From: a virus
Taxonomy: Duplodnaviria; Caudoviricetes
DNA length: 30,837 bases
IMG/VR virus record: IMGVR_UViG_3300031701_000010
Location: 1 to 30,837 of that record
Direction: 5' to 3' (one strand)
Position numbers and translations under genes: made by a program
Shown: piece by piece, positions 2,034 through 18,926 of the stretch
Numbering within the stretch: the first letter of the stretch is position 1
Layout of the letters: each line of letters opens with the position of its first letter
Notes under the pieces: model-generated
Databases searched by the model: none
What the model was told of the DNA's origin: nothing
What the model saw: only the letters and a program-made list of their open reading frames with translations

Positions 2034-2246
2034 ATCTCACCGGCCATGTGCCCTTCGATACCCAAAGCCTTAGCGCCGGTTACAACCTCACCGTCCATGG
2101 CACAGCCGATACCCTTAGCCGATACGACGGTCACTCTCACCAGCCAAAGCCTTGAGCCCCTCCGAACTCGTCCCGGTACCCAATGAACCAGCGGGGGGTT
2201 CAATAATCTCACTAGCCAAGGCCCTCCCGATACCCAATCTCGACCC
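2033..2246. repeat. degenerate ~50-bp tandem repeat region at a transcription convergence point
   Basis: AnnCTCACnnnCCA at 2033, 2084, 2133, 2205; CGATACCC at 2056, 2107, 2228; CCAAAGCCTT twice. Confidence 0.5.
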
Positions 2247-2251
2247 GCTAG

Positions 2252-2419
2252 TTAGTCTGAGTCACCGAGGATGAGTGCATCCCGTGCGTGATCTGCGGCT
2301 GCCTGTTCACTGGACAGCAGGTCCGTCAGTCGATTGACCTCATCCACCAGATGTACGATCCTCCACATGTACCAGTCCATCCCCATGTCCTTGCCCGGCT
2401 CGTAGTCCTGCAAGTCCAT
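2252..2419 (-). CDS. small hypothetical protein (55 aa, not in ORF track)
   Basis: Manual translation MDLQDYEPGKDMGMDWYMWRIVHLVDEVNRLTDLLSSEQAAADHARDALILGDSD*; starts 2 nt after the upstream stop. Confidence 0.6.
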   Translation of the reverse strand: MDLQDYEPGKDMGMDWYMWRIVHLVDEVNRLTDLLSSEQAAADHARDALILGDSD

Positions 2420-2421
2420 GG

Positions 2422-2568
2422 TCAGAACTTCATGGTTGGATAGGAGGTCCGACCAGTCGGCGTCGCTTCTTTCTTGACTTTCTTCATCGCTCGCCGGTTC
2501 CTCTTCTTCTGGTACTCCGCTCGCTTCTGAGCCCGAGCCGTCTTGCGCTGTTCCTTGTGCTTCTTCAT
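2422..2568 (-). CDS. small highly basic protein
   Basis: MKKHKEQRKTARAQKRAEYQKKRNRR...; its ATG overlaps the HIT gene stop (ATGA). Confidence 0.55.
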   Translation of the reverse strand: MKKHKEQRKTARAQKRAEYQKKRNRRAMKKVKKEATPTGRTSYPTMKF

Positions 2569-2999
2569 GCCGGATAGTTGGGCATCGCCTGATAGCGAGC
2601 CTTCTCTGGGATCACCCATCGAACGCCCCCACGGGGATCCCTCGTATCTCCCTCTGTTCGTGGAATGACGTGAACATGTGCGTGCTCAACCGTTTGGCCG
2701 GCGAAAGCCCCGACGTTCGTACCGATGTTCATGTCGGTAACTCCCGAACTTCGAAGGTGGTCGGCGACCAGAGCGACCATTGCCCACAGGTCGTATCGCT
2801 CATCAATATCCAGTTGGAACACATTCATAACGTGCCTGCGTGGGACAACCAGCGTGTGTCCGGGTGTAACCGGGTAGTTGTCGGGGAATGCAGCAGATGA
2901 TCGACCGATAGTCGTGCCGGCACCCTTGGATTCCCACCCGTTCTCCAGCCCTGCGATCTCGCAGAACGGGCACTCCTCTACACGAACTCCGGATTCCAC
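2565..2999 (-). CDS. HIT (histidine triad) family nucleotide hydrolase
   Basis: CPFC, YPVTPGHTLVVPRRH, AGQTVEHAHVHVIPR (HxHxH) and a GD..DPRGGVRWVIP tail. Start uncertain (GTG 2999 or TTG 3029). Confidence 0.92.
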   Translation of the reverse strand: MESGVRVEECPFCEIAGLENGWESKGAGTTIGRSSAAFPDNYPVTPGHTLVVPRRHVMNVFQLDIDERYDLWAMVALVADHLRSSGVTDMNIGTNVGAFAGQTVEHAHVHVIPRTEGDTRDPRGGVRWVIPEKARYQAMPNYPA

Positions 3000-3709
3000 A
3001 GACGCTCCCACGTTTGAGGACCGACACACCCATCCTTAGTCAGTCCTTCCATCCTCTGGAACTTCTTGACCGCCCAATGGGTACGCCAACCGTATTGACC
3101 GGTGTTCTTCATTGTTCCGAAGAAGCCGAGCATGATGATGCGCTCTTGCAGAGTGCCGACGATGGGGCCACGCGAGTTCCGCCTTTTCGACAACGGTGTG
3201 GCTGCCACCTGATCTGCGCAAGCAGCGATGTAGGCCAGGATGGCGAGAAAGTCAGGTTTTATCTCGGTCTTCTCTTCTTTGGTTTCGCTCATCGCTGGTG
3301 CGTCGAACCAACCTTCGGCATCGCGAGGTTGATGATGCCACCACTCACGAGCCTTGATCGTGGGGACAACGCCATAGCGGGTGGCGATGTTGTTGACCTC
3401 CCACTTGGCGATCTTGTTGCTGACCATGTGCAGATCGACCGCGTAGCAGAATCCGTCGTCCTGCGTCATGTGCCAACTTCCTCTCCACCAGCCGCCGGCC
3501 CCGAAGCGGCGGTCTGGGTTGGCAGCGAGATTGCCAGTTCCTGCCTTGTATTTCTTGTAGAAGTACGCCTGCTTCGCGTAAGTGCGACAGGCGCTACTCA
3601 CCTTCACCCGACCAACGATCTGAGGATCTTGGAAGAAGGCCTCTAGTCGTTTGACGAAGCGCGGGTGGAGAAGGGAGAGGTCAACGTTCTTGCCTGTGAC
3701 TGGAATCAT
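2978..3709 (-). CDS. M15-family Zn peptidase with C-terminal peptidoglycan-binding domain (endolysin-like)
   Basis: S..RTY..Q, SWH, AVD and EWWH motifs of M15/LAS peptidases; C-terminal LQ..L...G.YG..T..AVKKFQ..GL..DG.VGPQTW of PG_binding_1. Confidence 0.85.
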   Translation of the reverse strand: MIPVTGKNVDLSLLHPRFVKRLEAFFQDPQIVGRVKVSSACRTYAKQAYFYKKYKAGTGNLAANPDRRFGAGGWWRGSWHMTQDDGFCYAVDLHMVSNKIAKWEVNNIATRYGVVPTIKAREWWHHQPRDAEGWFDAPAMSETKEEKTEIKPDFLAILAYIAACADQVAATPLSKRRNSRGPIVGTLQERIIMLGFFGTMKNTGQYGWRTHWAVKKFQRMEGLTKDGCVGPQTWERLWNPEFV

Positions 3710-3738
3710 CTAGCCACAGTAGCATCTGGTTTGCGGCT

Positions 3739-4041
3739 CTAGCGGATGGGTACGACTTCTGCCATCAGGCCATCGCCTTCGGTTGTCTCAGGTGTCGCTG
3801 GGTTCGGCTGGAACAAGGTAACCCAATCGGAGGAAGCGAGCATCCCGTCCTCTACGTCTGGACCATGCCATGCGCGCAGCATCTTCATCCATGCGTCCTG
3901 TAGACGAACACTGATGTAGCGACTGGCTGGTCGGTTCCCTTCCTCCATGCGCTTCTGCCACTCCGTAGAGACAGCACCCGCTAGGGCGCCAAACTCTTCG
4001 GCGGTCAGTTCGATGGTCATGGTCTTGGTCTTAATTGACAT
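3739..4041 (-). CDS. hypothetical protein
   Basis: 100-aa ORF whose start overlaps the LysM gene stop. Confidence 0.65.
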   Translation of the reverse strand: MSIKTKTMTIELTAEEFGALAGAVSTEWQKRMEEGNRPASRYISVRLQDAWMKMLRAWHGPDVEDGMLASSDWVTLFQPNPATPETTEGDGLMAEVVPIR

Positions 4042-4310
4042 TAGTTCTCCGTTGGGATCTGGACAGTCTGGCCGATCTGAAGGGTGGCCGAACCGTCATT
4101 GAGTTGGATCATGTGGTGGACAGCGTTCTGGAGGTTACCTTCGCAGTTGTCGGAGGCGATCTGCCAGATCGTGTCAAAGGCTTGGGCCACAACTGGCTCC
4201 GTTGAGCAGGTGAACTTGACGTGTGCTGCGTTGGCTGTGCCGAACGCCCACACTCCACCGGCTACGGCTGCTGCCATGAGTATTCCTGTGAGTCCCCTCT
4301 TTATGTTCAT
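4041..4310 (-). CDS. membrane-anchored/secreted LysM-domain protein
   Basis: N-terminal hydrophobic helix, then V...DTIWQIA...I.LN...LQIGQTVQIP (LysM). Confidence 0.8.
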   Translation of the reverse strand: MNIKRGLTGILMAAAVAGGVWAFGTANAAHVKFTCSTEPVVAQAFDTIWQIASDNCEGNLQNAVHHMIQLNDGSATLQIGQTVQIPTEN

Positions 4311-4316
4311 ACCTTC

Positions 4317-4358
4317 ATCCTACAACCTGTTGACACCGCTGTCAAGTGCGGCTATGCT
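4317..4358. promoter_or_regulatory. overlapping divergent promoters sharing the palindrome TTGACA-CCGC-TGTCAA
   Basis: Minus strand: TTGACA (4345-4340), 17 nt, TAGGAT (4322-4317), 6 nt, ATG 4310. Plus strand: TTGACA (4330-4335), 17 nt, TATGCT (4353-4358). Confidence 0.8.
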
Positions 4359-4364
4359 GGGTTC

Positions 4365-4477
4365 GGGAGGCCAAAGGTATGGTGTCCCCGGGTAATGTAA
4401 ATGCACAGCGTGGCGTATTGCAGCGTGAAACTGTGTAGCCCGGGTATCGCAGGGTTCAACTCCCTGTCCGCTCACTA
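4365..4477 (+). ncRNA. tRNA-like / mini tmRNA-like RNA candidate
   Basis: Begins at the predicted +1. Perfect T-arm CAGGG-TTCAACT-CCCTG (4450-4466), a long central stem and an imperfect acceptor stem. Confidence 0.5.
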
Positions 4478-4542
4478 CTGACTGGCGCAGCGTTGCCGAG
4501 CCATCCACGGGGCTTGCGCCCAGCAACTTGTTCAGACATGAA

Positions 4543-4574
4543 GAAACCCCCGCCCATTTGGGCGAGGGTGTTTC
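4543..4574. terminator. probable (bidirectional) intrinsic terminator
   Basis: GAAACCCCCGCCCA-TTT-GGGCGAGGGTGTTTC hairpin between convergent transcription units. Confidence 0.55.
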
Positions 4575-4589
4575 GATGGGAGTCGGAAC

Positions 4590-4817
4590 CTAAGCGGAGT
4601 GAACCTCCGACCAGTCCGGAACTCCCCACTTCGTCCGATGGAGCGAGGCGATCCATTCTGCCTGCTTCGGATCCTTGCATCGCAGCGAGAAAGTCTGCGA
4701 ATCGGACGAGTCACCGTCGGGAGACTGGAAGCACATCTCCACCATGTTTCCGGTGGCGAATGCTGCGACCAGCGATCCCTTCACGGGAAGCATGGGGCGG
4801 GTAGTCGTGTCTGTCAT
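4590..4817 (-). CDS. hypothetical protein
   Basis: 75-aa ORF with SD GAAAGGA and its own promoter. Confidence 0.7.
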   Translation of the reverse strand: MTDTTTRPMLPVKGSLVAAFATGNMVEMCFQSPDGDSSDSQTFSLRCKDPKQAEWIASLHRTKWGVPDWSEVHSA

Positions 4818-4843
4818 GGTTTCCTTTCGTTTGATGTACCCCC

Positions 4844-4872
4844 AGTCTAGCCGACCCCGGCCCGCCTGTCAA
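4844..4872 (-). promoter_or_regulatory. SigA-type promoter
   Basis: TTGACA (4872-4867), 17 nt, TAGACT (4849-4844). Confidence 0.75.
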
Positions 4873-4895
4873 GGGTTTGTCGAGTTTCTCAGGAC

Positions 4896-4971
4896 TGGCT
4901 CGGCGGGGAGGGATCGAACCTCCAACCTCCGGGTCCAAAACCCGGCGTTCTGCCAGTTGAACTACCGCCGA
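4896..4971 (-). tRNA. tRNA-Gln(UUG)
   Basis: Cloverleaf; anticodon arm CCGGG-TT-TTG-GA-CCCGG; GGTTCGAT T-loop; encoded CCA. Confidence 0.95.
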
Positions 4972-4972
4972 C

Positions 4973-5047
4973 TGGTACCCCCAACGGGGATCGAACCCGT
5001 GTTACCAGCGTGAAAGGCTGGCGTCCTAACCACTAGACGATGGGGGC
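4973..5047 (-). tRNA. tRNA-Glu(UUC)
   Basis: Cloverleaf; CCAGC-CT-TTC-AC-GCTGG; encoded CCA. Confidence 0.95.
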
Positions 5048-5048
5048 T

Positions 5049-5124
5049 TGGTGGGAGCGGCGGGAATCGAACCCGCAACCGTCGGATTAAAAGTCCGCTA
5101 CTCTGCCAATTGAGTTACGCTCCC
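5049..5124 (-). tRNA. tRNA-Lys(UUU)
   Basis: Cloverleaf; anticodon loop CTTTTAA; encoded CCA. Confidence 0.95.
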
Positions 5125-5127
5125 GAG

Positions 5128-5211
5128 TGGCGGTGGCGGGATTTGAACCCGCATGACTCAAGAGTCGGGAGATTTTAAGTCTCCTGTGTATGCCCGTTCC
5201 ACCACACCGCC
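5128..5211 (-). tRNA. tRNA-Leu(UAA)
   Basis: GGAGA-CT-TAA-AA-TCTCC; long variable arm (GACTC-TT-GAGTC); CCA not encoded. Confidence 0.92.
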
Positions 5212-5226
5212 TCGCCTGAATAGGAG

Positions 5227-5445
5227 TTACGTTTCCCGCTCCACAAACATGGCGTACAAACGCTCAAGCGCGTTGTGGGTCGTCGTCTTGAATAGGGGCG
5301 GGGCCACAGCATGCACCAATGCAGCGAAGGATGCCCACGCCATTATCGCTGAGGCCGACAACGCAAAGCGCGCATGTTCACCCCAAGTCTGACCAACCGA
5401 AGCCGGATGTTCGGTGAAACGGTTAAAGGTTGGTATCAGTATCAC
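5227..5445 (-). CDS. DUF6356-like small membrane-associated protein
   Basis: FTEHPASVGQTWGEHARFA...LVHAVAPPLFKTT pattern; GTG 5445 overlaps the whiB stop. Confidence 0.7.
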   Translation of the reverse strand: MILIPTFNRFTEHPASVGQTWGEHARFALSASAIMAWASFAALVHAVAPPLFKTTTHNALERLYAMFVERET

Positions 5446-5738
5446 GATGGTGTCTCCGTGGGTTCGGTGCGGAACATCTTTCGTACTCGCCGCAGACTCT
5501 GTCGCTCTTGTTCGTTCGTCCCACCCCAAAAGCCAAACTCCAGATTACGCAGTGCGTAATCCAAACATTTCTTTTGTACTGGACAGGTACCACAAACAAT
5601 CCTCAGAACATGTGGCTCCTCGGTATTAAAGAATACTTCGGTGTCCATATTCTTGCATAATGCGTCCACCTTCCAAGGGGTTGGCTCGAATTGAATAAGG
5701 TCGCCCAAATTGTTGCGAAATTTGTCAGGAACGTCCAT
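5442..5738 (-). CDS. whiB: WhiB-family Fe-S transcription factor
   Basis: W...ALC...D.EVFF...CGTCPVQKKCLDYAL...GFWGGTNEQER. Confidence 0.92.
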   Translation of the reverse strand: MDVPDKFRNNLGDLIQFEPTPWKVDALCKNMDTEVFFNTEEPHVLRIVCGTCPVQKKCLDYALRNLEFGFWGGTNEQERQSLRRVRKMFRTEPTETPS

Positions 5739-5899
5739 CAGTCAGCAGACTGATCCGTGTTGGTTCGTGACATCGGTGCTTCGCACATCGGACAAATATA
5801 GTCGCGGTCTTCTAGCATCTGTCGCCCGACGTACCATAGGCATTCCGTGCAACGGATTACTCCGCGTAATCGGTTCTTTCTTACCTTTTTACTAGGCAT
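5738..5899 (-). CDS. small Zn-ribbon protein (53 aa, not in ORF track)
   Basis: MPSKKVRKNRLRGVIRCTECLW...ICPMCEAP...; promoter TTGGTA, 17 nt, TAAGAT, 5 nt, ATG. Confidence 0.65.
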   Translation of the reverse strand: MPSKKVRKNRLRGVIRCTECLWYVGRQMLEDRDYICPMCEAPMSRTNTDQSAD

Positions 5900-5997
5900 C
5901 TTGTATCTTACCAATTCACTTGTGGATTACCAACGTCTAGTCAAAGTTGATGGGGTAGTTCCCACATTGAGAATTACAGCGGTGTTATTATAACGCC

Positions 5998-6450
5998 GTG
6001 TCCTTGACTCATTCTGCTGCCCGCCGCCTGTTCGGCAAATTCGTCGCATTCAATCAAATGCTGTCGGAACAGCAGGAAGTTGAAAACTACTACGGGCTGT
6101 CTTATCGTATGGACACTTGGCAAATGTGGTCAGAATGTGAAGGGAATCACGAACCCAACTCCCGAACGCAATGTCACCACTCTGGATTGCACTTGACCAT
6201 CAAGGAATGTGAGAAACCGATGGGGCAAGCAGAGTTCGCTGTGATGTACGGACCATTCGATCTGATGACAGGCGATGACCCGGAACTGCTTTATCGCCAA
6301 ATGAACAACAGCGTGAAAGCGGTACTCGCCACTGCCCAACTACATATCCACGCCCTCGGGTGGCCCTGCCATGACGAGTGTCAATGCGAACAGATTCTCT
6401 CAGAAGAGAACTACATGGGACCACCTGATCGCAATGGATTTGACGACTGA
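5998..6450 (+). CDS. hypothetical Cys/His-rich protein
   Basis: 150-aa ORF; extended -10 TGn-TATTAT lies 6 nt before the GTG. Confidence 0.65.
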   Translation: MSLTHSAARRLFGKFVAFNQMLSEQQEVENYYGLSYRMDTWQMWSECEGNHEPNSRTQCHHSGLHLTIKECEKPMGQAEFAVMYGPFDLMTGDDPELLYRQMNNSVKAVLATAQLHIHALGWPCHDECQCEQILSEENYMGPPDRNGFDD

Positions 6451-6539
6451 TGTTAGAAGTGTTTGAGTGGATTGGCTATGGCGCTATGTTCCTGCTCGCC
6501 ATAGTGCTGTACATGGGTTGGACGGATATTCAACGCTAG
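6450..6539 (+). CDS. 29-aa single-TM peptide
   Basis: MLEVFEWIGYGAMFLLAIVLYMGWTDIQR*; TGATG overlap with the upstream gene. Confidence 0.5.
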   Translation: MLEVFEWIGYGAMFLLAIVLYMGWTDIQR

Positions 6540-6746
6540 TTAGAACAGCGCCTCTTCTTGAGTGGCCTGCCCCTTGCGTTTTCTCATCTCTAGGTCAACA
6601 CAGAGTGGATGTGCCCATCCGGCAGCATCACTAATGAGTCTGGCCCCTGTGATCTTGCCCGGTTCCAACCAGCAAAGAACCCGTTTATACGATCCCTGAG
6701 TTCGTGGGTTCAGATTCTTTCCGCAGAACTCACACACGACTGTCAT
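6540..6746 (-). CDS. small Zn-binding hypothetical protein
   Basis: CEFC and HPLC motifs. Confidence 0.65.
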   Translation of the reverse strand: MTVVCEFCGKNLNPRTQGSYKRVLCWLEPGKITGARLISDAAGWAHPLCVDLEMRKRKGQATQEEALF

Positions 6747-6818
6747 TTGGTCAGTTCTCGGAGGACACTACTCGCCATGTGACGAGGATAGCATCCCCCG
6801 AGGTAACTAACTCCACGA

Positions 6819-7265
6819 TCAGGCAGGTGAATCACACGGCATGTACCGGGCATAGACCCGATAGTCGCCGTTGGCATCTACACGAACCACCGACTCGTAG
6901 GTATCGTTCATTCCAGCCACGATGCGTAACGCCTTCAACTCGTGCTTCACGATACGACGCTTGAGACCCACCGCGTGGGCACGGGCTGCCGGGGTGTCCG
7001 CCGCCTTGAAGATGCGGATCAACGCCCACTCACGCGGCTTGCTGGTCAGCCTCTCGGCAACGGTGTTCCAGAAGATGGTTGCAGGTGCGCTTGTCTTGCC
7101 TCGACCCATCTGGCTGTAGGACAGGCTGTCACCCGTCGGTTGCTCATAGCAAAGGACACTCAACAGATCGTTCAAGTTATCCTTGCTCATGGCGTTGGCC
7201 TTTGAACGGGTGGATCTCACAGACACCTCTGCGGCATCAATCGATCCGAACACTGGCTCACTCAT
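6819..7265 (-). CDS. hypothetical protein
   Basis: 148-aa ORF coupled to the upstream gene by ATGA. Confidence 0.7.
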   Translation of the reverse strand: MSEPVFGSIDAAEVSVRSTRSKANAMSKDNLNDLLSVLCYEQPTGDSLSYSQMGRGKTSAPATIFWNTVAERLTSKPREWALIRIFKAADTPAARAHAVGLKRRIVKHELKALRIVAGMNDTYESVVRVDANGDYRVYARYMPCDSPA

Positions 7266-7570
7266 ACCTGTACTCCATCCTCGTCGTAACTCGCAACAGA
7301 TGCGAGTACCGGGGGATTAGTTTCGGCTTCGGCGTCGGGTGAGTACGCCCTGATGACGACCGTCCGATTCTCCAAGTTGGTGTGGGTCCGAACCTTGACG
7401 CCACGACGCTTCGCCGTGCCGTGGCAATGAGCCACGAAGGTGCGGGGTTCCATCTCAAAATCTTCGCCCTGAGTTAGTTCCCAGTTCTTGCCGTTGAGAA
7501 TCTTGTCCCAGTTATATTTAGCATTGCCGCCCGCATTGCGAGCGAACTTGAACTGCTTTACTTCACGCAT
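7262..7570 (-). CDS. conserved actinophage-type hypothetical protein
   Basis: Start ATG 7570 with GGAGG SD; KYNWD..LNG..WEL..GEDF motif. Confidence 0.7.
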   Translation of the reverse strand: MREVKQFKFARNAGGNAKYNWDKILNGKNWELTQGEDFEMEPRTFVAHCHGTAKRRGVKVRTHTNLENRTVVIRAYSPDAEAETNPPVLASVASYDEDGVQV

Positions 7571-7692
7571 AGGTACTGTCCTCCAGTAGTTGCGTATTGG
7601 ATGACAAGCCAAGTTGGCTCGCCTCTGTCGTCCACTTGCTGGACATCTAGATCAATGTATCTATCGAATGTCGGAATACCAACCTATCTTGA

Positions 7693-8100
7693 TTAAACAT
7701 TTGCTCCCGTGTCTAGCCCTACCGTGGGTATCTGATAGGCCAGTTCTAGTTTGTGATTGTCGATGGTTCCTTCGTACTCGTAGGTCACGGTGTCCGCCTG
7801 CCAGAAGGAGTTGGGTCCGAGGTAGGCGTCGCCTGATTCACGGAGCAGGCTTGAGTCAAGGTCGCTCTCCTTGATGGCCCACACATAGATGCTGTCGTTG
7901 GGCACGATCGTCGGTAGCCATGTCTTCTCGCCGTTGAACTCTATCTGTGTGGGTTCGCCTTGCTCCGGGCGGATGTAGACGAACTGTGCGGCATGTGCGA
8001 AGGTTGGTCCGGCGAGATAGACGCATCCGTCCATGCCCGGCGTGAGCCCCTTTTCGAAGATGCTGCCGATCCGGCTCTCATATGTTGCGTGGTATAGCAT
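7693..8100 (-). CDS. ADP-ribosyltransferase-fold (Tpt1/KptA-like) small protein
   Basis: LYHAT....I.EKGL.PG...VYLA NAD-binding motif; start ATG 8100 with GGAG SD. Confidence 0.6.
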   Translation of the reverse strand: MLYHATYESRIGSIFEKGLTPGMDGCVYLAGPTFAHAAQFVYIRPEQGEPTQIEFNGEKTWLPTIVPNDSIYVWAIKESDLDSSLLRESGDAYLGPNSFWQADTVTYEYEGTIDNHKLELAYQIPTVGLDTGANV

Positions 8101-8104
8101 CGTC

Positions 8105-8497
8105 CTACTCCTGTGCATCTTTGGTTTGGTAGTTATCTATAATGTCATTCATCGAAGCATGGCGCTCCGGATGGGAGTTCCACGCCGTCACTGGGATGCG
8201 GTAGGAGTCGTCGGTTGCATCGGGATGCTCGCCATTCCGAAACCAGCAATCGACATCCTCTCCCTCCTTCGTGACCATGTGGACCCCGTAATGCTGCTCT
8301 GGTAGTTCACACCACAACCCTTTTACGTCGGGGTGTGGAGAAACGCATGGCACCTGAGTCATTGAACGACATTTCCTGCATGAGCCAACAGACTCACCTG
8401 TCTCCGCTGTCAGGTCCGGCGTCTGAGTAGCCATCTCAATCGTGGTCTTACTCTGACCGCAGTCTAGGCAAAGCCACTTCACTTCATTCGACATCAT
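8105..8497 (-). CDS. Cys/His-rich hypothetical protein
   Basis: Start MMSNEVKWLCLDC overlaps the GHKL gene stop; CxxC pairs. Confidence 0.65.
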   Translation of the reverse strand: MMSNEVKWLCLDCGQSKTTIEMATQTPDLTAETGESVGSCRKCRSMTQVPCVSPHPDVKGLWCELPEQHYGVHMVTKEGEDVDCWFRNGEHPDATDDSYRIPVTAWNSHPERHASMNDIIDNYQTKDAQE

Positions 8498-9960
8498 TTG
8501 CACTCCTGTGGGTCGATGCGCCACTTCATGGAACCGGTCCTGAACTTGGCACCCATCGCTGTACAGGCGGTGTAATACCTCGTCGTCAAATGGTCCGGTG
8601 CCTCCTTGTGGGCACACTCATGGATGATCAGGTCATCCAATGCCACTGCCAACTCCTTCGTGGTCATCGTGCCCCAACCTGCTCGCCTTAGTACAAGCCA
8701 GTTGAAGTCGATGCGACGGGTCATATGGATTGCCGCTTCCTTTTGCCACCGGTCATCGTCAATCATGTTGATCTCGAAATGGCTCTCGTCTTCCAAAAAC
8801 ATTGCAGCCTTCCTCGCGTATGCCTGTATCGCTTTCGTCAACTTCGTCGGCTTGGCATGTGCGTAACCAAGCCCCTGACCGTGCGTGGGCTTCAACGAGA
8901 AGTCGGTGGCTGACGATACGGCTGCGTCGTTTTCTTTGATGGCGGTCCAAACGTCCCTGTTATAGGTGCCACCGTTCACGACCTCTCTTCCGTGGGCGAT
9001 GGCGTTCTTGTCGGCTTCCCGATCTGCCGGAGTACCGATGACCCAGCCCTTTCCATGACGGGTGTTCATCACACTCACGACTGCGTCCTCACCGGCACCC
9101 GGAATGGCTTCGGTCACCCACACCGCTGATGTCTCTTCCTCGTTCAGCAGGCCGTGTGTCTCTTCCAACACCGCACCCAGTAATGCTCGCCTATAGGCAG
9201 GCGTCACGTTGTCACGGTCCCGGTTCAACGGCACCTTCTGATCCACGTTGATGTGCCACGGCGTGTCGATCTCCACCACGGGGATGCCCATTTCGTACAG
9301 GTGAGCCTGCTGGTGGATGCCATCTACCTCTGCTGCGATGATGTCCACGCAGGTGGTACGACGGGTCGGCTTCATCTGACCCTTCTCATCCATCCGCAAC
9401 GTGGGCAGACTGATGCCCATGATCCGCTTGATCGGCTCGCGACCTTCGATCACGAATCCGTTGACGGTCACGGTGAACCCGTCCGGCACCAGCACGTTGT
9501 TGATGTCACACAGAATCTCGTAGACCTCATCACGGTTCAGGCGCACCACACCGGAGAACACCGACCCACTCTCGCGTCGGTCATCGGTGACGGTACGTCC
9601 GCTCTCATCGAAGAAGACGCTGCCGGTCGTGGTGGAGATGCTCGCCTTGACGCACTGCGACAGTACGAACTTCTCACCCTCATTGAACCGACCCCGCTTC
9701 ATGGGGTCACCCTTCTTCTTCGACGGCTGGTACAACGTGTACGCGTCGGTGAGGTCGGAGAACCCTTCCGGGCAGTCGTCCTCAACAACGAGACTGGCAT
9801 GCTCATCGTCAATCGACTTGAGGCCCACGGATGCAACGGATGCGTTCTCATCAAATACATTCTGGAGCAGGTCGTGGACCATGGCAATCTTTGGGCGTGA
9901 AGCCATCAACTGGCCAAACCCATCTAGGTCAACGTCGATCCAATTGGTGCGGGTGTTCAT
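8494..9960 (-). CDS. GHKL (Hsp90/MutL/MORC-type) ATPase fused to a C-terminal HExxH zincin-like domain
   Basis: DLLQNVFDE (N-box), VEDDCPEGF (G1), SKK..D..KRGRFNEGEK (G2); C-terminal IIHECAH....DH. Start ATG 9960 with GGAGG SD. Confidence 0.75.
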   Translation of the reverse strand: MNTRTNWIDVDLDGFGQLMASRPKIAMVHDLLQNVFDENASVASVGLKSIDDEHASLVVEDDCPEGFSDLTDAYTLYQPSKKKGDPMKRGRFNEGEKFVLSQCVKASISTTTGSVFFDESGRTVTDDRRESGSVFSGVVRLNRDEVYEILCDINNVLVPDGFTVTVNGFVIEGREPIKRIMGISLPTLRMDEKGQMKPTRRTTCVDIIAAEVDGIHQQAHLYEMGIPVVEIDTPWHINVDQKVPLNRDRDNVTPAYRRALLGAVLEETHGLLNEEETSAVWVTEAIPGAGEDAVVSVMNTRHGKGWVIGTPADREADKNAIAHGREVVNGGTYNRDVWTAIKENDAAVSSATDFSLKPTHGQGLGYAHAKPTKLTKAIQAYARKAAMFLEDESHFEINMIDDDRWQKEAAIHMTRRIDFNWLVLRRAGWGTMTTKELAVALDDLIIHECAHKEAPDHLTTRYYTACTAMGAKFRTGSMKWRIDPQECK

Positions 9961-10079
9961 CGGTCCTCCCTCTGCTCCCTGAGGTACAGCCCTGCGGCGA
10001 TGCCAAGGCATAGCCCAAGGAGACCCCAACACAGGAGCGTTGTCGTGTGCATAGTAATGGTTGCTAGTACGGTATCCAT
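9957..10079 (-). CDS. 40-aa single-TM protein (not in ORF track)
   Basis: MDTVLATITMHTTTLLCWGLLGLCLGIAAGLYLREQREDR*; promoter TTGCAA, 16 nt, TAGACT, 6 nt, ATG; stop overlaps the GHKL ATG. Confidence 0.6.
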   Translation of the reverse strand: MDTVLATITMHTTTLLCWGLLGLCLGIAAGLYLREQREDR

Positions 10080-10136
10080 ATTGGCAGTCTACCGGCGTTC
10101 AAGTCAATTGCAACCTGCGTGACCGATGTCACACAT

Positions 10137-10349
10137 CTACTCCCAGTCGCTAGCGACGTGTGTGACCGGTCCCTGCGTCTCAATCCAGACGCGGGCACCG
10201 CAATGATCCGGGGTCTGCGAATGGATGATCTCACAGGGACCATCGATCTTGATCCTCGTCAGGTGGGTCGAACCCTTATACGTCCGGTCGATGATGGCAG
10301 GCTCACCCTTCTTGACCTTCTGCTGGTGGACATGGATGATGTGCTTCAT
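10137..10349 (-). CDS. conserved small phage protein
   Basis: IIHVHQ...P.I....I.GPC.I.....CGARVWIET motif; GGAGG SD. Confidence 0.7.
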   Translation of the reverse strand: MKHIIHVHQQKVKKGEPAIIDRTYKGSTHLTRIKIDGPCEIIHSQTPDHCGARVWIETQGPVTHVASDWE

Positions 10350-10353
10350 CGTG

Positions 10354-10590
10354 CTACCTCCGACCCTTACCTGAACGGCGATATGAACGACACCCATCGC
10401 ATCGACGGGCGGTCATCGTCTCACCCTTGTACTCATACAGAAACGATGTCAGCGGGTACCACTGACGGCAGTCAGCACACACGAACTCTTCACCCGTGCG
10501 GGCACGGGCTTCGGCTTCACGATCCGACTTGTCTCGGATGCGCTGACGGGTGTTCCTCTTGTTGACCTGTGCGAACCTGTCCTCAGGCAT
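10354..10590 (-). CDS. small basic Zn-finger protein
   Basis: CADC and CDGC; promoter TTGGCA (10625-10620), 17 nt, TAGGAT (10602-10597), 6 nt, ATG. Confidence 0.65.
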   Translation of the reverse strand: MPEDRFAQVNKRNTRQRIRDKSDREAEARARTGEEFVCADCRQWYPLTSFLYEYKGETMTARRCDGCRSYRRSGKGRR

Positions 10591-10659
10591 GTGACGATCC
10601 TACCCCTTCCCGCGTCCAATGCCAACCCTCACACCTTATCCACACCCAATCCCGGTCTA

Positions 10660-10905
10660 TCGGGGGAGGGGAGGCAGAAGGGCAAGGGGGTAGGGGCAGG
10701 GGGGTGGGGGTCGAAGGGTGAGGGCGCGGGGGCTTGGGCTCTGGGGGCCGGGGGTCGAAGGGCCGAGGGGCAGGACGCCGAGGGTCGGGGGGCAGGGGAG
10801 GGGGGAGGGGATCGGGCATGCCGGGGTCGGGCGAGGGGCCGAGGGCAGGGGGCGAGGGCAGGGGGGGCCGAGGGGGGTCGGACGAGGGGGGCAGGGGAGG
10901 TCGAA
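10660..10905 (+). repeat. extremely G-rich low-complexity tract (G-quadruplex-prone)
   Basis: Many G3-G7 runs with recurring GAGGGCAGG, GGTCGAAGGG and GGCCGAGGG units. Confidence 0.8.
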
Positions 10906-10906
10906 A

Positions 10907-11067
10907 TCGAACGGGCGTTCGATCGGAGGGTCGAACGGGTGTTCGATGGGGAGGCATGATCGAACGGGTGTTCGATGAGGGGGTCATGGACGAACGGGTG
11001 TTCGATGGGGTGTTCGATGGGGGTACAGGTGTTCGATGGAGAAGGTCATGGTCGAACGGGTGTTCGA
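10907..11067. promoter_or_regulatory. tandem array of LexA/SOS-box-type palindromes TCGAAC-N4-GTTCGA
   Basis: Perfect boxes at 10907, 10931, 10960 and 11052; one-mismatch box at 10990; half sites ending at 11017 and 11036. Confidence 0.7.
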
Positions 11068-11231
11068 TGAGGGGGGGGTACCCCTACCCCCCACCTACCC
11101 ACACGCAATTACCCCTATCCACCCGTAATTGTAAAGAGGTCCAACTTTCTGGTACCCCTGCGTGTGTGTGGGGGGGAGCGATTGGTTTTTTGAAGTTCGC
11201 TTTAGTTTAGATTGTTTTATCCGGCGGTGGG

Positions 11232-11399
11232 CTAGTTGGTGTGTGTTCGGGCGATTGCTCTGATGTCTAGTAGGTGGTTTTGGATTTCGGTTGCGGGGAT
11301 GTTTTGGCGGTTGGTGACTATTTTGAGGAAGTTGTCGATTTCTTCGATGAGTTGTTGTCCTGCGGTGGGTGGGATGGTTTCTTCGATTACTTCGGTCAT
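11232..11399 (-). CDS. small hypothetical protein
   Basis: MTEVIEETIPPTAGQQLIEEIDNFL...; AAAGGA SD. Confidence 0.6.
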   Translation of the reverse strand: MTEVIEETIPPTAGQQLIEEIDNFLKIVTNRQNIPATEIQNHLLDIRAIARTHTN

Positions 11400-11557
11400 G
11401 TCTCGTCCTTTAAGATTGTGGCCGTTTCGGGGATGATTGCTGCTAATGATTTTGGGGTGTGGTGTTTTTGTCCGTTTGTGTCTACCCAGTGTACCCACAT
11501 GTCTGGGTCGGCGAGGTTACCGATGATTTGGCTGAGTTCGTATTTTTCTCTAGCCAT
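11396..11557 (-). CDS. small hypothetical protein (53 aa, not in ORF track)
   Basis: MAREKYELSQIIGNLADPDMWVHWVDTNGQKHH...; overlaps both neighbours in coupling configuration. Confidence 0.55.
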   Translation of the reverse strand: MAREKYELSQIIGNLADPDMWVHWVDTNGQKHHTPKSLAAIIPETATILKDET

Positions 11558-11795
11558 ATCGAACGTCTCGATCTTTGTATGGGTTTTTCCATGCGTTGTA
11601 TGGGTTGGGGCGCTCTTGTGCCTGTCCGGTTCCGCCGTTCAGGTAGTTTACTCTGGCTGCTGCTTCTTTGATTGTTCTGTGTGTGGATTCTGTGTTCCAT
11701 GCTAGGTATGGTGTGTTGTCGTATGAGTATCTGGTTGTGTAGAAGCCAACTTGGTATTGGTCGTTTGCGGGTCCTGTTGTTATGTACACATACAT
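11550..11795 (-). CDS. conserved small phage protein
   Basis: Y.VGFY....W.TES.H.T..EAAARVNYLNGG motif; start ATG 11795 with GAGG SD. Confidence 0.65.
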   Translation of the reverse strand: MYVYITTGPANDQYQVGFYTTRYSYDNTPYLAWNTESTHRTIKEAAARVNYLNGGTGQAQERPNPYNAWKNPYKDRDVRYG

Positions 11796-11965
11796 GTTTT
11801 GATCCTCTGTTCTGAATAGGACTATCCGTAGGACGACTATGCCGCCCCTGTTTCCCGATTCCAAAAATATTTTTTAGAGGACCGCTTGGGGGGGGTCGGC
11901 CCGTGGGGGTAATGCTAGCGGGGGGCTAGTTGAAAGACAACCTGCCTATTGAGTTGTTGTTTTGT

Positions 11966-12160
11966 GGGCACGGGAGGGGACAGAGTTACCTTGACGGGGA
12001 GCAATCCCTGCCTTCAACCCTTTTGGTGGGAAAGGGGAGGCTGGGCAAAACCCGTCATCCTCGTGGGTACACGGTTAGGACTAATCCGTATACCAGTGAG
12101 GCAGGTAACTCCTTAACCCGGGTAGAAAGGAAGACCCCGGGCTTAGTCCCCTCCTCGCTC
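11966..12160 (+). ncRNA. multibranch structured ncRNA candidate (~190 nt)
   Basis: Two perfect nested 9-bp long-range stems plus several hairpins and a GCAA tetraloop; G-U pairs favour the + strand. Confidence 0.6.
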
Positions 12161-12174
12161 GTTGTGGGTTCCGG

Positions 12175-13023
12175 TTATTCTCCAGATTCCCATAGGTTAT
12201 CTAATCCTTTGATCTTTCCTCCGGTGCGGAGAAAGTCTACTGCTGTTGACAGGCGGAAGTGGTATTTACCGGGGGTACCGGGTGGATAACGTTCTTCCAG
12301 TAATAGAAGCGTCTGTTCAAACGGGTAGTCGTTCCATTCGGCATCGAACCAGCGTTCCACCCAATTGTTCGTTGGGGTGGGTTGCGGGAGGGGGATTGGT
12401 TCTGGAACGACATCTTCTACCACTGGACTTGTTGTGGTCGTGGGTGGAAGGGTTGTTGTTGGTTGATCGGGAACACTTGTTGTTGTGGTCGTCGCCGGGA
12501 TGTTCGATTCCCATACTCCGTCTTCGTTGATCTCCATGACCGGGATGGAGTACCCGTAGTTGCCCATGCAGAGCGACTGCCAGACGGTCCACGATGGGGT
12601 CATCGGGTTCGCCGCAGCCCAGTAGGGATCATTGAATCGGCGCACGGTCTTGTTGGCGTCCAGAATCCATTCGGGGATTAGACCTGAACTGAACATCAAC
12701 GCTTCGATCTCCGGATAGTTGCCGTTGGCCCAATCATCAATGGACAGAATCTGGCCGTCGGTCAGGTTTCTAGCCCACACAACCCTTGGGTCTTCGAGAC
12801 CTTTGCCGCCGTGGAGTGCTTCGTCGTAACGGAACACGACGCCGGACGGAATCGTTCCGTCAGCCTCCATCGTGGTGATGTGTGCGGCCCACTCGTCGTA
12901 GGTCATGTGTATGAACCCGTACTCGGTTCCGCAGGGCGAGTAGATCGTGTCATGGCTGGCGCTGGCTGGGGTTGCTGCTAGAACAGAGCCAAAGATTGCA
13001 GCGGCTACGAATGCCTTTAACAT
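12175..13023 (-). CDS. secreted protein with Thr/Pro-rich linker
   Basis: Signal peptide (MLKAFVAAAIFGSVLAATPASA); TTTTT/PTTT linker before a small C-terminal domain. Confidence 0.75.
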   Translation of the reverse strand: MLKAFVAAAIFGSVLAATPASASHDTIYSPCGTEYGFIHMTYDEWAAHITTMEADGTIPSGVVFRYDEALHGGKGLEDPRVVWARNLTDGQILSIDDWANGNYPEIEALMFSSGLIPEWILDANKTVRRFNDPYWAAANPMTPSWTVWQSLCMGNYGYSIPVMEINEDGVWESNIPATTTTTSVPDQPTTTLPPTTTTSPVVEDVVPEPIPLPQPTPTNNWVERWFDAEWNDYPFEQTLLLLEERYPPGTPGKYHFRLSTAVDFLRTGGKIKGLDNLWESGE

Positions 13024-16103: not shown

Positions 16104-16454
16104 ATGGAACCTTCCCTCGAAGACATACTAGATGTTTTTCATTGCTGGGTTTTGGCTTGTAGAGCATCCGCACGAGGTAGGAAACCTGTATTGGGTGACA
16201 AGCGACGACGCAAGATTAAGAAAGCAATTGAACTGTACGGTGTGGAAACTTGCAAGCAGGCCATAGAGGGAGTTCTTCTATCTCCGTGGCACATGGGTTA
16301 CAATCCCAGTGGCAAGAAGTATGACGATATAGAACTCATCTTGAGAGATGAGAAGCATATAGAACAGTTCTTATCTTACTATGATAACGCTGAAACAACA
16401 GAAGGCGAATTCAAAGTCATTGAATCGTATGCTAATGGTAAAGAGCCCTTCTAG
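16104..16454 (+). CDS. putative replication-initiator-like protein
   Basis: Lies just upstream of the helicase-loader-like gene and primase; C..AI.G...SPWHMG.N...KKYDDIELILRD motif. Function inferred from context. Confidence 0.45.
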   Translation: MEPSLEDILDVFHCWVLACRASARGRKPVLGDKRRRKIKKAIELYGVETCKQAIEGVLLSPWHMGYNPSGKKYDDIELILRDEKHIEQFLSYYDNAETTEGEFKVIESYANGKEPF

Positions 16455-16459
16455 TCGCT

Positions 16460-16927
16460 ATGGATAAAGACGACCTCGCTCGAACCGTGAAAAAAGTTTG
16501 CGTCAATTGGAATCTGCCTACTGCCGGTCCTCCTTTTCAAGAACGGTGTTTGCTTTGGTGGGATTTCTTAAACGATATTGAAATCGATTTAGCGGATAAA
16601 GCCATTAAACAAATCATTTCGTTAGATCAAAGGTATCCACCACGCGTGGGACAAATCCGACGTTTAGCAATAGACATGAGATTTGAGGGAGACCCCATAC
16701 CTTCTCCCCCGGAAGCGTGGGCACAATTTCGTCAGGCGATCGACGCCTCCGAGTCGGGGACTTCCTTCCGCAAACCCCATAACCTCGTTGGTAAGACCAT
16801 GAAGTCGTTTCCTAACAACGGTGCTGGATTGAGAACCAATTCTGACAGAGAACTGTTCCTTTCCGCTTATGGCAAAATCGTTGAAGAGGCGGAAAAAGAA
16901 AGGTATTTGAGTGGACCGGACACCTGA
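16460..16927 (+). CDS. putative helicase loader/inhibitor (G39P-like)
   Basis: W...L.DI....A..AI...YPP.V..IR...PS..EAW pattern; position before the primase-helicase. Confidence 0.5.
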   Translation: MDKDDLARTVKKVCVNWNLPTAGPPFQERCLLWWDFLNDIEIDLADKAIKQIISLDQRYPPRVGQIRRLAIDMRFEGDPIPSPPEAWAQFRQAIDASESGTSFRKPHNLVGKTMKSFPNNGAGLRTNSDRELFLSAYGKIVEEAEKERYLSGPDT

Positions 16928-18587
16928 AGTTGATCTCGTTCTCTCCAAACTGGACAGAGTACGACAGGCTGGTAGTGGCTGGGAAGCGTGTTGCCCAGCC
17001 CACGCCGATGATAAGCCTTCTCTTACTGTTGGAATCGGGCGGGAGGGGCAGGTTCTCCTGCATTGTCATAGCGGCGCCGCCTGCTCGTTCGCCGAAATCT
17101 GTGACGCTATAGACCTTAAGCCGAACGACTTGTGGCCAGAGTCGAATAAACCAAAACAGAAACTACGCAAAGAAGCCACCTACGTCTACGAAGATGCTGA
17201 TGAAAATCCCGTAATGCGGGTGATTCGCTTCAAGGATGATTTGGGTGCCAAAACTTTTCGGCAGCAGAGATATCAGAATGGTGGTTGGGAGTGGGGTACT
17301 CAAGACATAGAAAAGCCCCTCTATCGATTGCCGCAGGTTTTGGAGCGAATCTCCAATGATGAAATCGTCTACGTTGTGGAGGGCGAGAAGGACGTTCACA
17401 CGTTGGAATCGTTGGGTCGGGTGGCAACTTGCAATCCCGGTGGGGCAGGAGCCGAAGGGCAAGATAAGTGGTTACCTCAACACACCCGAGCCTTGGCCGG
17501 TGGGAAAATCGTCATCATCGCTGATGATGATAAACCCGGTTATGCCCATGCAGCCCATGTAGCGGCAGAACTTAGAAAGGTTGGAGCGAGGGTAAAGGTT
17601 TTTAAACCAGCACAAGGTAAAGACATTTCAGATCATATAGGTGTTGGATTGTCGATGAGCGATTTGGAAGTTGTCGCTGGTGAAATCAGAGACACGTTCA
17701 CTGATTTCATCGACTCTCTCAAGGATCTTGACCACAGCCAACCATTGAATGTCAGAGTAAATAAAGCCCAACGTTTACTGGATGCCTTTGGTCGTGATGA
17801 AAGCAGCACGGAACAAAAAGGCAGATTGATTGATTGGGCCACTCTGATCGGAGAAGAGTCAGATGATTCTTTCGATTGGCTCATTCCCGGTCTTTTGGAA
17901 CGTCAGGAGCGGGTGATTGTCGTCGCTGCCGAGGGTGTTGGTAAAACCTACTTGGCACGACAGGTTGCACTCATGTGTTCAGCCGGGATACACCCGTTTA
18001 AACGGGACAAGATGCCACCAGTTCGAACTTTATTTGTGGATCTTGAAAATCCTGAACGGATTATTAGAAGAACCGCTAGAAAAATCTATAAGAAAATCGA
18101 AGAGGTTGGGCGAGCAAAAGACATGGAAGCCCACCTTGTTGTCAAACCGGATGGATTAGACCTACTTAAATCAGATGATCGCAACAAACTAATCGAATGG
18201 ATAGACCAGACCCAACCGGAACTTCTTGTCCTTGGACCGTTGTATAAATCCTTTTTAGATCCCGGCGGAAGAACGGCTGAATCGGTTAGCACCGAAGTGG
18301 CTAAGTTTCTTGACTATATTCGCCACGAATATGGTTGTGCCATGTGGTTGGAACATCACGCTCCATTGGGATCTGGCCAGAGCAGAGAGATGCGTCCATT
18401 TGGTTCTGCTGTGTGGAGTCGTTGGTCGGAGTTTGGAATCTCCATTACTCCTGATCCGACCGATCCGGCTGTTATGGAAGTCAAGCATTACAGAGGAATG
18501 CGTGATGAAAGGGAGTGGCCGACTCGCATGCGTCGGGGAAATGAAGACGAGTGGCCATTTATTGTTCTCGAATTTCTTAAGTTTTAG
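16911..18587 (+). CDS. DNA primase-helicase (Zn-binding + TOPRIM + RecA/AAA_25 helicase)
   Basis: CPAHADDKPSL..HC; VVEGEKD and ADDD (TOPRIM); AAEGVGKT Walker A; LFVDLEN; LEHH; RPFGS. Confidence 0.9.
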   Translation: MDRTPEVDLVLSKLDRVRQAGSGWEACCPAHADDKPSLTVGIGREGQVLLHCHSGAACSFAEICDAIDLKPNDLWPESNKPKQKLRKEATYVYEDADENPVMRVIRFKDDLGAKTFRQQRYQNGGWEWGTQDIEKPLYRLPQVLERISNDEIVYVVEGEKDVHTLESLGRVATCNPGGAGAEGQDKWLPQHTRALAGGKIVIIADDDKPGYAHAAHVAAELRKVGARVKVFKPAQGKDISDHIGVGLSMSDLEVVAGEIRDTFTDFIDSLKDLDHSQPLNVRVNKAQRLLDAFGRDESSTEQKGRLIDWATLIGEESDDSFDWLIPGLLERQERVIVVAAEGVGKTYLARQVALMCSAGIHPFKRDKMPPVRTLFVDLENPERIIRRTARKIYKKIEEVGRAKDMEAHLVVKPDGLDLLKSDDRNKLIEWIDQTQPELLVLGPLYKSFLDPGGRTAESVSTEVAKFLDYIRHEYGCAMWLEHHAPLGSGQSREMRPFGSAVWSRWSEFGISITPDPTDPAVMEVKHYRGMRDEREWPTRMRRGNEDEWPFIVLEFLKF

Positions 18588-18593
18588 AAAGAG

Positions 18594-18926
18594 GTGGGGG
18601 ACATGGAAAGCAACGCTTTGGATTCGTGGATCCATCAAGCGAAATGCCAAGAAGAAAACACTGACCTATTTTTCATCCTCCGTGGCGATCCGCAGCAGAA
18701 GACGAAACGCACAGCAGCCTACGCTGTTTGTCAGTACTGTCCAGTAAAATCGGAATGCTTGGACTATGCGATCATCAACCATGAGGTTGGCATCTGGGGT
18801 GGGACGACCGACGCTGAGAGACGGTTCCTCCGACGATCGTGGACGCCAAAATCAGAGCCTAGAAAACGGGTTGTTTTTCAGAGTCTTGTACGAGGCGTAA
18901 CCGTCGGCGTTCCCAAATCAGAATAG
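18594..18926 (+). CDS. whiB: WhiB-family Fe-S transcription factor
   Basis: W..QAKC...DLFF...VCQYCPVKSECLDYA...GIWGGTTDAERR. Confidence 0.93.
   Translation: MGDMESNALDSWIHQAKCQEENTDLFFILRGDPQQKTKRTAAYAVCQYCPVKSECLDYAIINHEVGIWGGTTDAERRFLRRSWTPKSEPRKRVVFQSLVRGVTVGVPKSE

Follow-up and report, generated by a model that had tools for sequence, protein, structure and literature searches.

Control by host LexA has hitherto been known for a few temperate elements. As described in the sections of the reports cited here, the Bacillus tectivirus GIL01 uses host LexA without integration, through boxes located in its promoter P1; the co-repressor gp7 is also required (PMC4551915, PMC6950372). In phage T5, the DnaA boxes of the injection stop signal are proposed to form a physical docking site, and as presented in that preprint they have a fixed eight-box geometry, involve DnaA alone and are located within a proven terminal repeat (bioRxiv 10.1101/866236). 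Many sites for a host master regulator have also been described in virulent phages, in CtrA lytic deferment and at the Spo0A sites of phi29, and these are proposed to time phage development by host state; the sites are described from promoter regions, the regulators and hosts are different ones, and the cited part of that report describes no interchangeable tandem arrays (PMC9437464). On the host side, the Streptomyces venezuelae SOS box is given as tCGAAC-N4-GNNCGa, and the boxes reported there are single or double, mostly imperfect and positioned at -199 to +91 (PMC9380542).

We describe here a five-copy array of perfect SOS-box cores in a marine phage contig, together with its counterparts in other phages. 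As with GIL01, this is an apparently non-integrating phage with several Gram-positive SOS boxes and a predicted use of host LexA, but the array is well removed from the promoter, its copy number among relatives varies from 0 to 7, DnaA-type boxes can replace it, and the phage is a tailed one of ~140 kb. The likeness to T5 is that boxes for a host protein cluster in a large untranslated, repeat-rich segment bordering an early module; unlike T5, LexA boxes dominate and the geometry is loose, and the paired DnaA arrangement of T5 is absent, the contig having one DnaA-type box and the relative L147 eight that are loosely spaced. Co-option of host LexA by phages is thus already known, and the swappable tandem arrays are a new variant of it; in the literature searched (mostly open-access, main texts) we saw no account of lytic actinophages with tandem LexA arrays in which the host sites can be exchanged. 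Our results suggest that swappable non-coding arrays connect many actinophages, apparently lytic and lacking a repressor, to the LexA and DnaA of their hosts. If so, such a connection would explain how lysis is delayed, or a carrier state maintained, in slow-growing actinobacteria of marine and fresh waters; alternatively, it would be a means of host reprogramming by DNA only.

Phage family and predicted host

The window (the whole stretch of 30,837 nucleotides analyzed here) is the complete 30.8 kb virus record, and the runs containing it are seawater metagenomes. It belongs to a family of ~130-150 kb WhiB-bearing tailed phages; CheckV values of 21-32% for the 31-47 kb records of its clade indicate a genome of about 145 kb. 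Besides four tRNAs, the window encodes SNF2, SSB and a PD-(D/E)XK nuclease, a rightwards-transcribed group of replication genes (an O-like initiator fragment, a helicase loader and a primase-helicase; 16104-18587, + strand) and two WhiB proteins, of which the first is at 5442-5738 and the second follows the replication genes (18594-18926, + strand). Six array-bearing records fall within the family (terminase 68-71% identical), including the complete genomes G010 and G013, the latter of a contractile-tailed phage. A blastn search with window positions 9000-13000 gave no match and no cultured close relative, and the identity of the terminase to those of deposited phages does not exceed 42%.

WhiB genes are a marker of actinobacterial hosts, and here they point to a likely host in the Actinomycetota; WhiB, habitat and GC taken together indicate that it is probably a member of the Acidimicrobiales, and marine Acidimicrobiales encode LexA according to the cited part of PMC10205998. 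WhiB genes are present in 27 of 44 array-bearing records and in 12 of the 14 near-complete ones, the 44 having been hand-picked from at least 121 with long records favored. A histone deacetylase-family gene was observed in a sister phage (L123:4844-5932) and also in G013.

A tandem array of predicted LexA sites

The predicted host LexA-site array (10907-11067, no strand assigned) comprises five perfect cores, a degenerate copy and a half-site. The original prediction placed TCGAAC-N4-GTTCGA at 10907, 10931, 10960 and 11052 with a one-mismatch copy at 10990, and these positions are correct; within them, all five 14-bp cores CGAAC-N4-GTTCG (10908, 10932, 10961, 10991 and 11053) are perfect. The degenerate copy at 11021 was also properly placed and has three mismatches in 16, and an extra right half-site is present at 11009, inside the array. 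Start-to-start spacings are 24, 29, 30, 31 and 31 bp as reported, and TRF describes the segment as a 31-bp unit in 4.8 copies with 77% matches, with a 12-bp half-unit duplication at 10996-11022. Matches to the 16-mer average 0.15 in shuffled windows, and none of 100 shuffles reaches six. The boxes fit the actinobacterial LexA motif as expected from the prediction, the match to tCGAAC-N4-GTTCGa being above chance, where the consensus is that of S. venezuelae in the cited part of PMC9380542 and may not be that of the host of this phage. One contig of run X1, which is possibly the source sample, covers 10303-11288 with no differences.

Because the unit lengths are not multiples of three and the open reading frames spanning the array are of low complexity, the array is non-coding, in agreement with the earlier reading. 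It is flanked by a G-rich stretch of low complexity and by a short C-rich one, and Rfam finds no family over it; its folding score (z = -4.67) reflects the palindromes and was rejected as a signal of RNA structure. Among 15 distinct units from the clade of the window the ten half-site positions are invariant (15/15), while linker positions are conserved in 5 to 13 of 15, such that relatives retain the half-sites and the linkers drift, which was one of the comparisons proposed. The suggestion that the copies are helically phased did not hold up, with 40 in-phase and 37 anti-phase among 96 spacings (in the 90 independent loci among the matches listed; see below).

Genome context of the array

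To the left of the array is a sigma-70-type promoter (TTGGCA-17-TAGGAT; 10597-10625, - strand) with an ATG 6 bp downstream, lying where it had been placed and with its nearest box 282 bp away. It heads a leftwards-transcribed module of small genes, tRNAs and a WhiB gene (2200-10590, - strand), which has strong promoters and a GC content at 4-fold sites of 0.62 versus 0.46, and which likely contains the early genes. The same promoter layout recurs in L136, L147 and L153. The only perfect DnaA-type box in the window, TTATCCACA (10636-10644, + strand; consensus as in the cited part of bioRxiv 10.1101/866236), lies 11 bp upstream of the -35 element of this first early promoter and is absent from L136. 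Between it and the array is a G-rich low-complexity spacer (10650-10900, + strand) with G-quadruplex-type motifs at 10680-10770 and 10782-10877, the sequence and length of which vary among lineages. Within the module, a GTGA-N6-TCAC sequence, which we take to be CRP-like, is found at 10119-10132, directly upstream of a -35 element at 10113 that precedes the gene of a 488-aa protein (8494-9960); this protein is conserved in the family, has no Pfam or PHROG match, and in a genome scan has three Acidobacteriota homologues at 32-36%.

To the right of the array, 76 bp from the nearest box, is a conserved non-coding anchor (11133-11191, no strand assigned) composed of AAAGAGGTYCAACTTT, a C-run/G-run and a T-run, which is present in relatives whose left flanks are otherwise unrelated. 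Three small conserved genes end beside it (11232-11795, - strand), the last of which (11550-11795) served as bait for relatives. The strongest G+T-rich stretch of the window (11151-11750, + strand) starts at the anchor and crosses these genes; the top 400-bp G+T window is at 11151, the three genes have 0, 1 and 2 G versus 13, 6 and 10 C at 4-fold sites, and the same bias from the anchor is seen in nine loci. In G011, G014 and G037 the biased strand instead enters a SNF2 gene, and the strand bias is therefore positional. A cumulative GC-skew minimum at 10,653 had suggested an origin, a candidate that was dropped after the 4-fold-site test: GC skew at these sites is -0.115 on the left and -0.123 and -0.119 on the far right, and since there is no genome-wide flip a bidirectional origin is unsupported.

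The array slot in related phages

Relatives were gathered through the flanking gene and the flanking DNA motif rather than through the boxes themselves. Left of the shared anchor their DNA differs almost completely, and perfect boxes are nevertheless kept there in seven of the eight lineages found in this way, with one to five in each. The window and L148 have five boxes (the same five in L148, with different flanks), L121 at least three, L136 three, L147 two together with its eight DnaA-like boxes, L140 one and a half site, and L137/L138 and L123/L153 one each; the group of L168, L171, L172 and L176 has none. L123 also contains five GTTAC-N6-GTAAC palindromes, spaced by 36-42 bp around its one LexA box (L123:12080-12260). 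In the array region, L134 and L135 match the window; they were not counted as independent. Also left out of the count were L122, L141 and L139, where the contig ends at most 56 bp from, or before, the anchor, and L143-L145, L154-L167, L169, L170 and L173-L175, where the bait gene is in another context; L177-L213 were scanned for the anchor alone and lack it, and the further contigs examined had no additional array.

Two features of this slot were overlooked in the original prediction. The boxes are spaced more steadily relative to the right-hand anchor than to the left-hand promoter: the gap between the anchor and its nearest box measures 54-112 bp in seven of ten lineages and 9, 226 and 393 bp in the other three (a count that includes G011, G014 and G037, found through boxes), and in the four loci that match the promoter pattern 282, 142, 310 and 604 bp separate the early -35 element from the last box. 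In addition, the slot is swappable, as sister lineages carry arrays of DnaA boxes or of other palindromes there. In G013 an anchor-like element recognized by eye at 119 kb is accompanied by DnaA-type boxes alone, with 17 kb separating it from the LexA array, and LexA and DnaA arrays head the leftwards-transcribed small-gene module of that genome.

Tandem boxes in other viral contigs

The scan of phage contigs that had been proposed, performed here as a census of two perfect boxes 8-22 bp apart, recovered clustered boxes with variable spacers. At least 121 tandem-box stretches were found (~250 estimated), compared with 24, of which 8 are distinct, for a reversed-motif control. Those among the matches listed reduce to 90 independent loci, seven of which have five or more boxes. 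We take RNRY, as given in the original prediction, to be the spacer consensus of the Gram-positive SOS box; among the matches listed it fits 144 of 182 distinct spacers, versus a 19% background and 2/20 in the reversed control, and 61 of the 90 independent arrays have mixed spacers, mostly RNRY. Similar clusters occur in cultured Gordonia and Mycobacterium phages, and the Gordonia phages Commandaria and Marietta carry arrays of this kind.

Sites resembling those of other host proteins accompany the arrays. Among the matches listed, 38 DnaA-type boxes are present in 11 of the 90 loci, versus 0 in a reversed control scored with the LexA boxes masked and 1.9 in shuffles, and motifs that we presume to be CRP-like and TTAGG-N4-CCTAA sites are enriched in five and seven loci, respectively. 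TGCAT-type motifs near arrays are not enriched (7 vs 5.4 in shuffles), and a terminase gene is located within 1.5 kb in 4/45 array loci (150/166 ORFs scanned), which by rough estimate is no enrichment. One DnaA cluster in G033, at 115.4-115.9 kb (L403:15399-15933), packs about 20 DnaA-type boxes into 530 bp, and 1.5 kb from it are eight LexA boxes, four of them perfect; further DnaA clusters occur in the small-gene region of this record, which has 31 perfect boxes versus 0 in the control. In G018 (48.2-49.9 kb; L410) a repeated cassette before small genes contains, in this order, DnaA boxes, a LexA box, TGTGA-N6-TCACA sites, which are presumably CRP-like, and a promoter.

Boxes outside the array

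A single box is also present in G001, G002 and G003 in a region beyond the right end of the window, 13, 24 and 12 bp upstream of a -35 element, respectively. The operon under it contains a Rad52/22-family gene and a PD-(D/E)XK nuclease gene. The box alone is kept within an unconserved AT-rich spacer and has three different box spacers in the three genomes, and it looks like a genuine operator in its sequence context; it has been lost in L235. Abutment of a promoter (12-24 bp) was seen solely at this recombination-operon box, in contrast to the array. By eye, boxes recur shortly upstream of small-gene units in G022, G018, G013 and G033. Perfect boxes also lie in coding regions, namely in the genes for histone deacetylase (L123-L125), SNF2 (G001) and ribonucleotide reductase (L160-L175), and were set aside as coincidence; several such chance boxes within genes also fit RNRY.

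Candidate binding proteins

The complete relatives G010 and G013, as would be expected of a GIL01-type system, encode no tyrosine integrase, no LexA DNA-binding domain and no autocleaving repressor (CI/LexA peptidase), which suggests that the protein binding the array is probably host LexA. A Peptidase_S24 domain is present in none of 48 array-bearing records (14 near complete), a tyrosine integrase in one of 14 near-complete records, and a LexA DNA-binding domain in two of 20 records, both of which have distant terminases; coverage of the window's own clade in these surveys is 21-32% of the genomes. No integrase, DNA polymerase or RecA was found among 150 of the 158 ORFs of G013, the ORF scan of this genome alone covering serine integrases, and PolA and DnaE were not found in G010 or G013.

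The two exceptional domains are stand-alone proteins of ~79 aa without a peptidase (L400:1622-1861 in G008, and G016:22639-22857), encoded by records that both carry SOS-box clusters, with seven boxes in G008; each is a candidate for a possible non-cleavable LexA mimic. A small winged-helix protein, a possible alternative binder, is common to four records of the family (G013, G022, G033 and G011), and is not found in G010.

Possible roles of the array

The original prediction gave prominence to a sponge. In the form considered here it would act in trans: multiplying arrays would titrate LexA, so that RecA and mutagenic polymerases are induced and division is arrested, and the arrays of relatives would titrate DnaA too, blocking host initiation and freeing the replisome. 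The perfect-consensus boxes of the array overlap no promoter, clusters in relatives reach 7-8 LexA boxes and about 20 DnaA boxes, the two kinds of site co-cluster well above the control, PolA and DnaE were not found in G010 or G013, and the ORFs scanned in G013 include no DNA polymerase or RecA, all of which would suit a sponge. Titration of LexA is buffered by autorepression of lexA. A pure sponge also fits poorly with three lineages keeping exactly one box and one keeping none, the retention of single copies arguing for a local role in cis. Five sites per genome are moreover few against the ~1300 LexA molecules of E. coli, where induction is a tenfold drop (PMC3159453, in the passage cited), and would matter only after some tens of copies or more; S. 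venezuelae has 175 LexA sites (PMC9380542, in the part cited). We consider the sponge unlikely on balance, and likewise doubt its wider form, in which non-coding billboards for several host regulators (LexA, DnaA, CRP-like and others) would amplify with the genome, sponge them up and be cassette-swapped between lineages, although if true this would be a protein-free takeover, with SOS functions turned on and host replication initiation off at once. A structural role at a genome end or at the border of a terminal repeat, where bound host proteins would stop, ratchet or shield entering DNA in the manner of the T5 injection stop signal, is rather improbable. The array does border a ~10 kb small-gene module, its host-type sites are interchangeable, and a sharp G+T strand bias begins at the anchor; against this, X1 contigs, which provide a weak measure from contigs only, show no depth step (18.1 to the left, 15.7 in the array and 12.8-17.1 to the right), contig ends near the anchor are scattered over 53-533 bp, the distance to the terminase gene is ~24 kb in G001, terminase genes are rarely close to arrays elsewhere, and the similar array of the cultured Gordonia phage Commandaria lies 8.6 kb within the deposited record, flanked by divergent genes.

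Neutral slippage around one functional LexA site, which would make copy number meaningless, accounts for the range of 0-5 copies among close relatives, the nearly constant GGGT spacer of the clade, the half-unit duplication and the repeat-rich surroundings, and yet we find it an equally improbable account, as the cores are invariant with adjacent linker positions about half conserved, most independent arrays among the matches listed mix their spacers within the RNRY consensus, and the reversed motif yields few tandems and almost no RNRY spacers. Least probable, and in our view quite unlikely, is that the boxes bind a phage protein (a repressor, initiator or terminase subunit) with an SOS-box-like site. 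The stand-alone LexA domains occur in two unrelated array-bearing phages, and the winged-helix protein and the O-like initiator fragment of the window offer further candidates, but neither the stand-alone domain nor the winged-helix protein was detected in the complete genome G010, where three boxes are present, or in the examined parts of G000-G003, and the motif recurs in 90 independent loci among the matches listed and in the cultured Gordonia and Mycobacterium phages.

The array is, as predicted, too distant from the promoter (142-604 bp) for simple steric repression, so any repression would require either looping or a target that is not the promoter itself. This distance speaks against a plain operator, and the single-copy lineages, the box-free lineage and the small number of sites relative to the LexA pool against a sponge; we therefore favor, tentatively and at somewhat less than an even chance, a modular docking segment for host proteins that would gate phage start-up on the SOS state of the host. 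From sequence comparison, the phage likely reads host state through host proteins. Host LexA would dock in cis on the array at the head of the early-gene module and hold back a start-up step, presumably either the onset of early transcription or the initiation of replication at the anchor, for as long as LexA is not cleaved in response to DNA damage or to single-stranded DNA of the phage. One box would appear to be sufficient, with extra copies tuning occupancy, and LexA titration at late stages of replication would be a by-product; in sister lineages DnaA may instead gate start-up by host state. Cis docking is supported by the single box kept in three lineages, and at least one in seven of eight, despite turnover of the surrounding DNA, by the narrow range of anchor gaps in most lineages, by the operator-like box of the recombination operon and by the boxes seen upstream of small-gene units; GIL01 is a precedent for the use of host LexA without integration. 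Set against it are the absence of a box in the L168 group and its loss at the L235 recombination promoter, the deviating anchor gaps (9, 226 and 393 bp) in three of ten lineages, the anchor-like element of G013 that lacks a LexA box, and the ~20-box DnaA arrays of G033, which exceed the needs of an operator. Neither contig depths nor 4-fold-site skew shows a terminus or origin at the array or anchor.

A conserved element downstream of the terminase gene

A conserved non-coding element of ~300 nt is located directly after the terminase gene in three contigs (L217:11000-11325, + strand; L215:5090-5400, - strand; L233:1020-1345, + strand). It has no Rfam or ARAGORN match. A long closing stem is predicted, and two-sided changes are seen in 10 of 86 predicted pairs among the three sequences only, making the element a candidate new structured RNA of phages.
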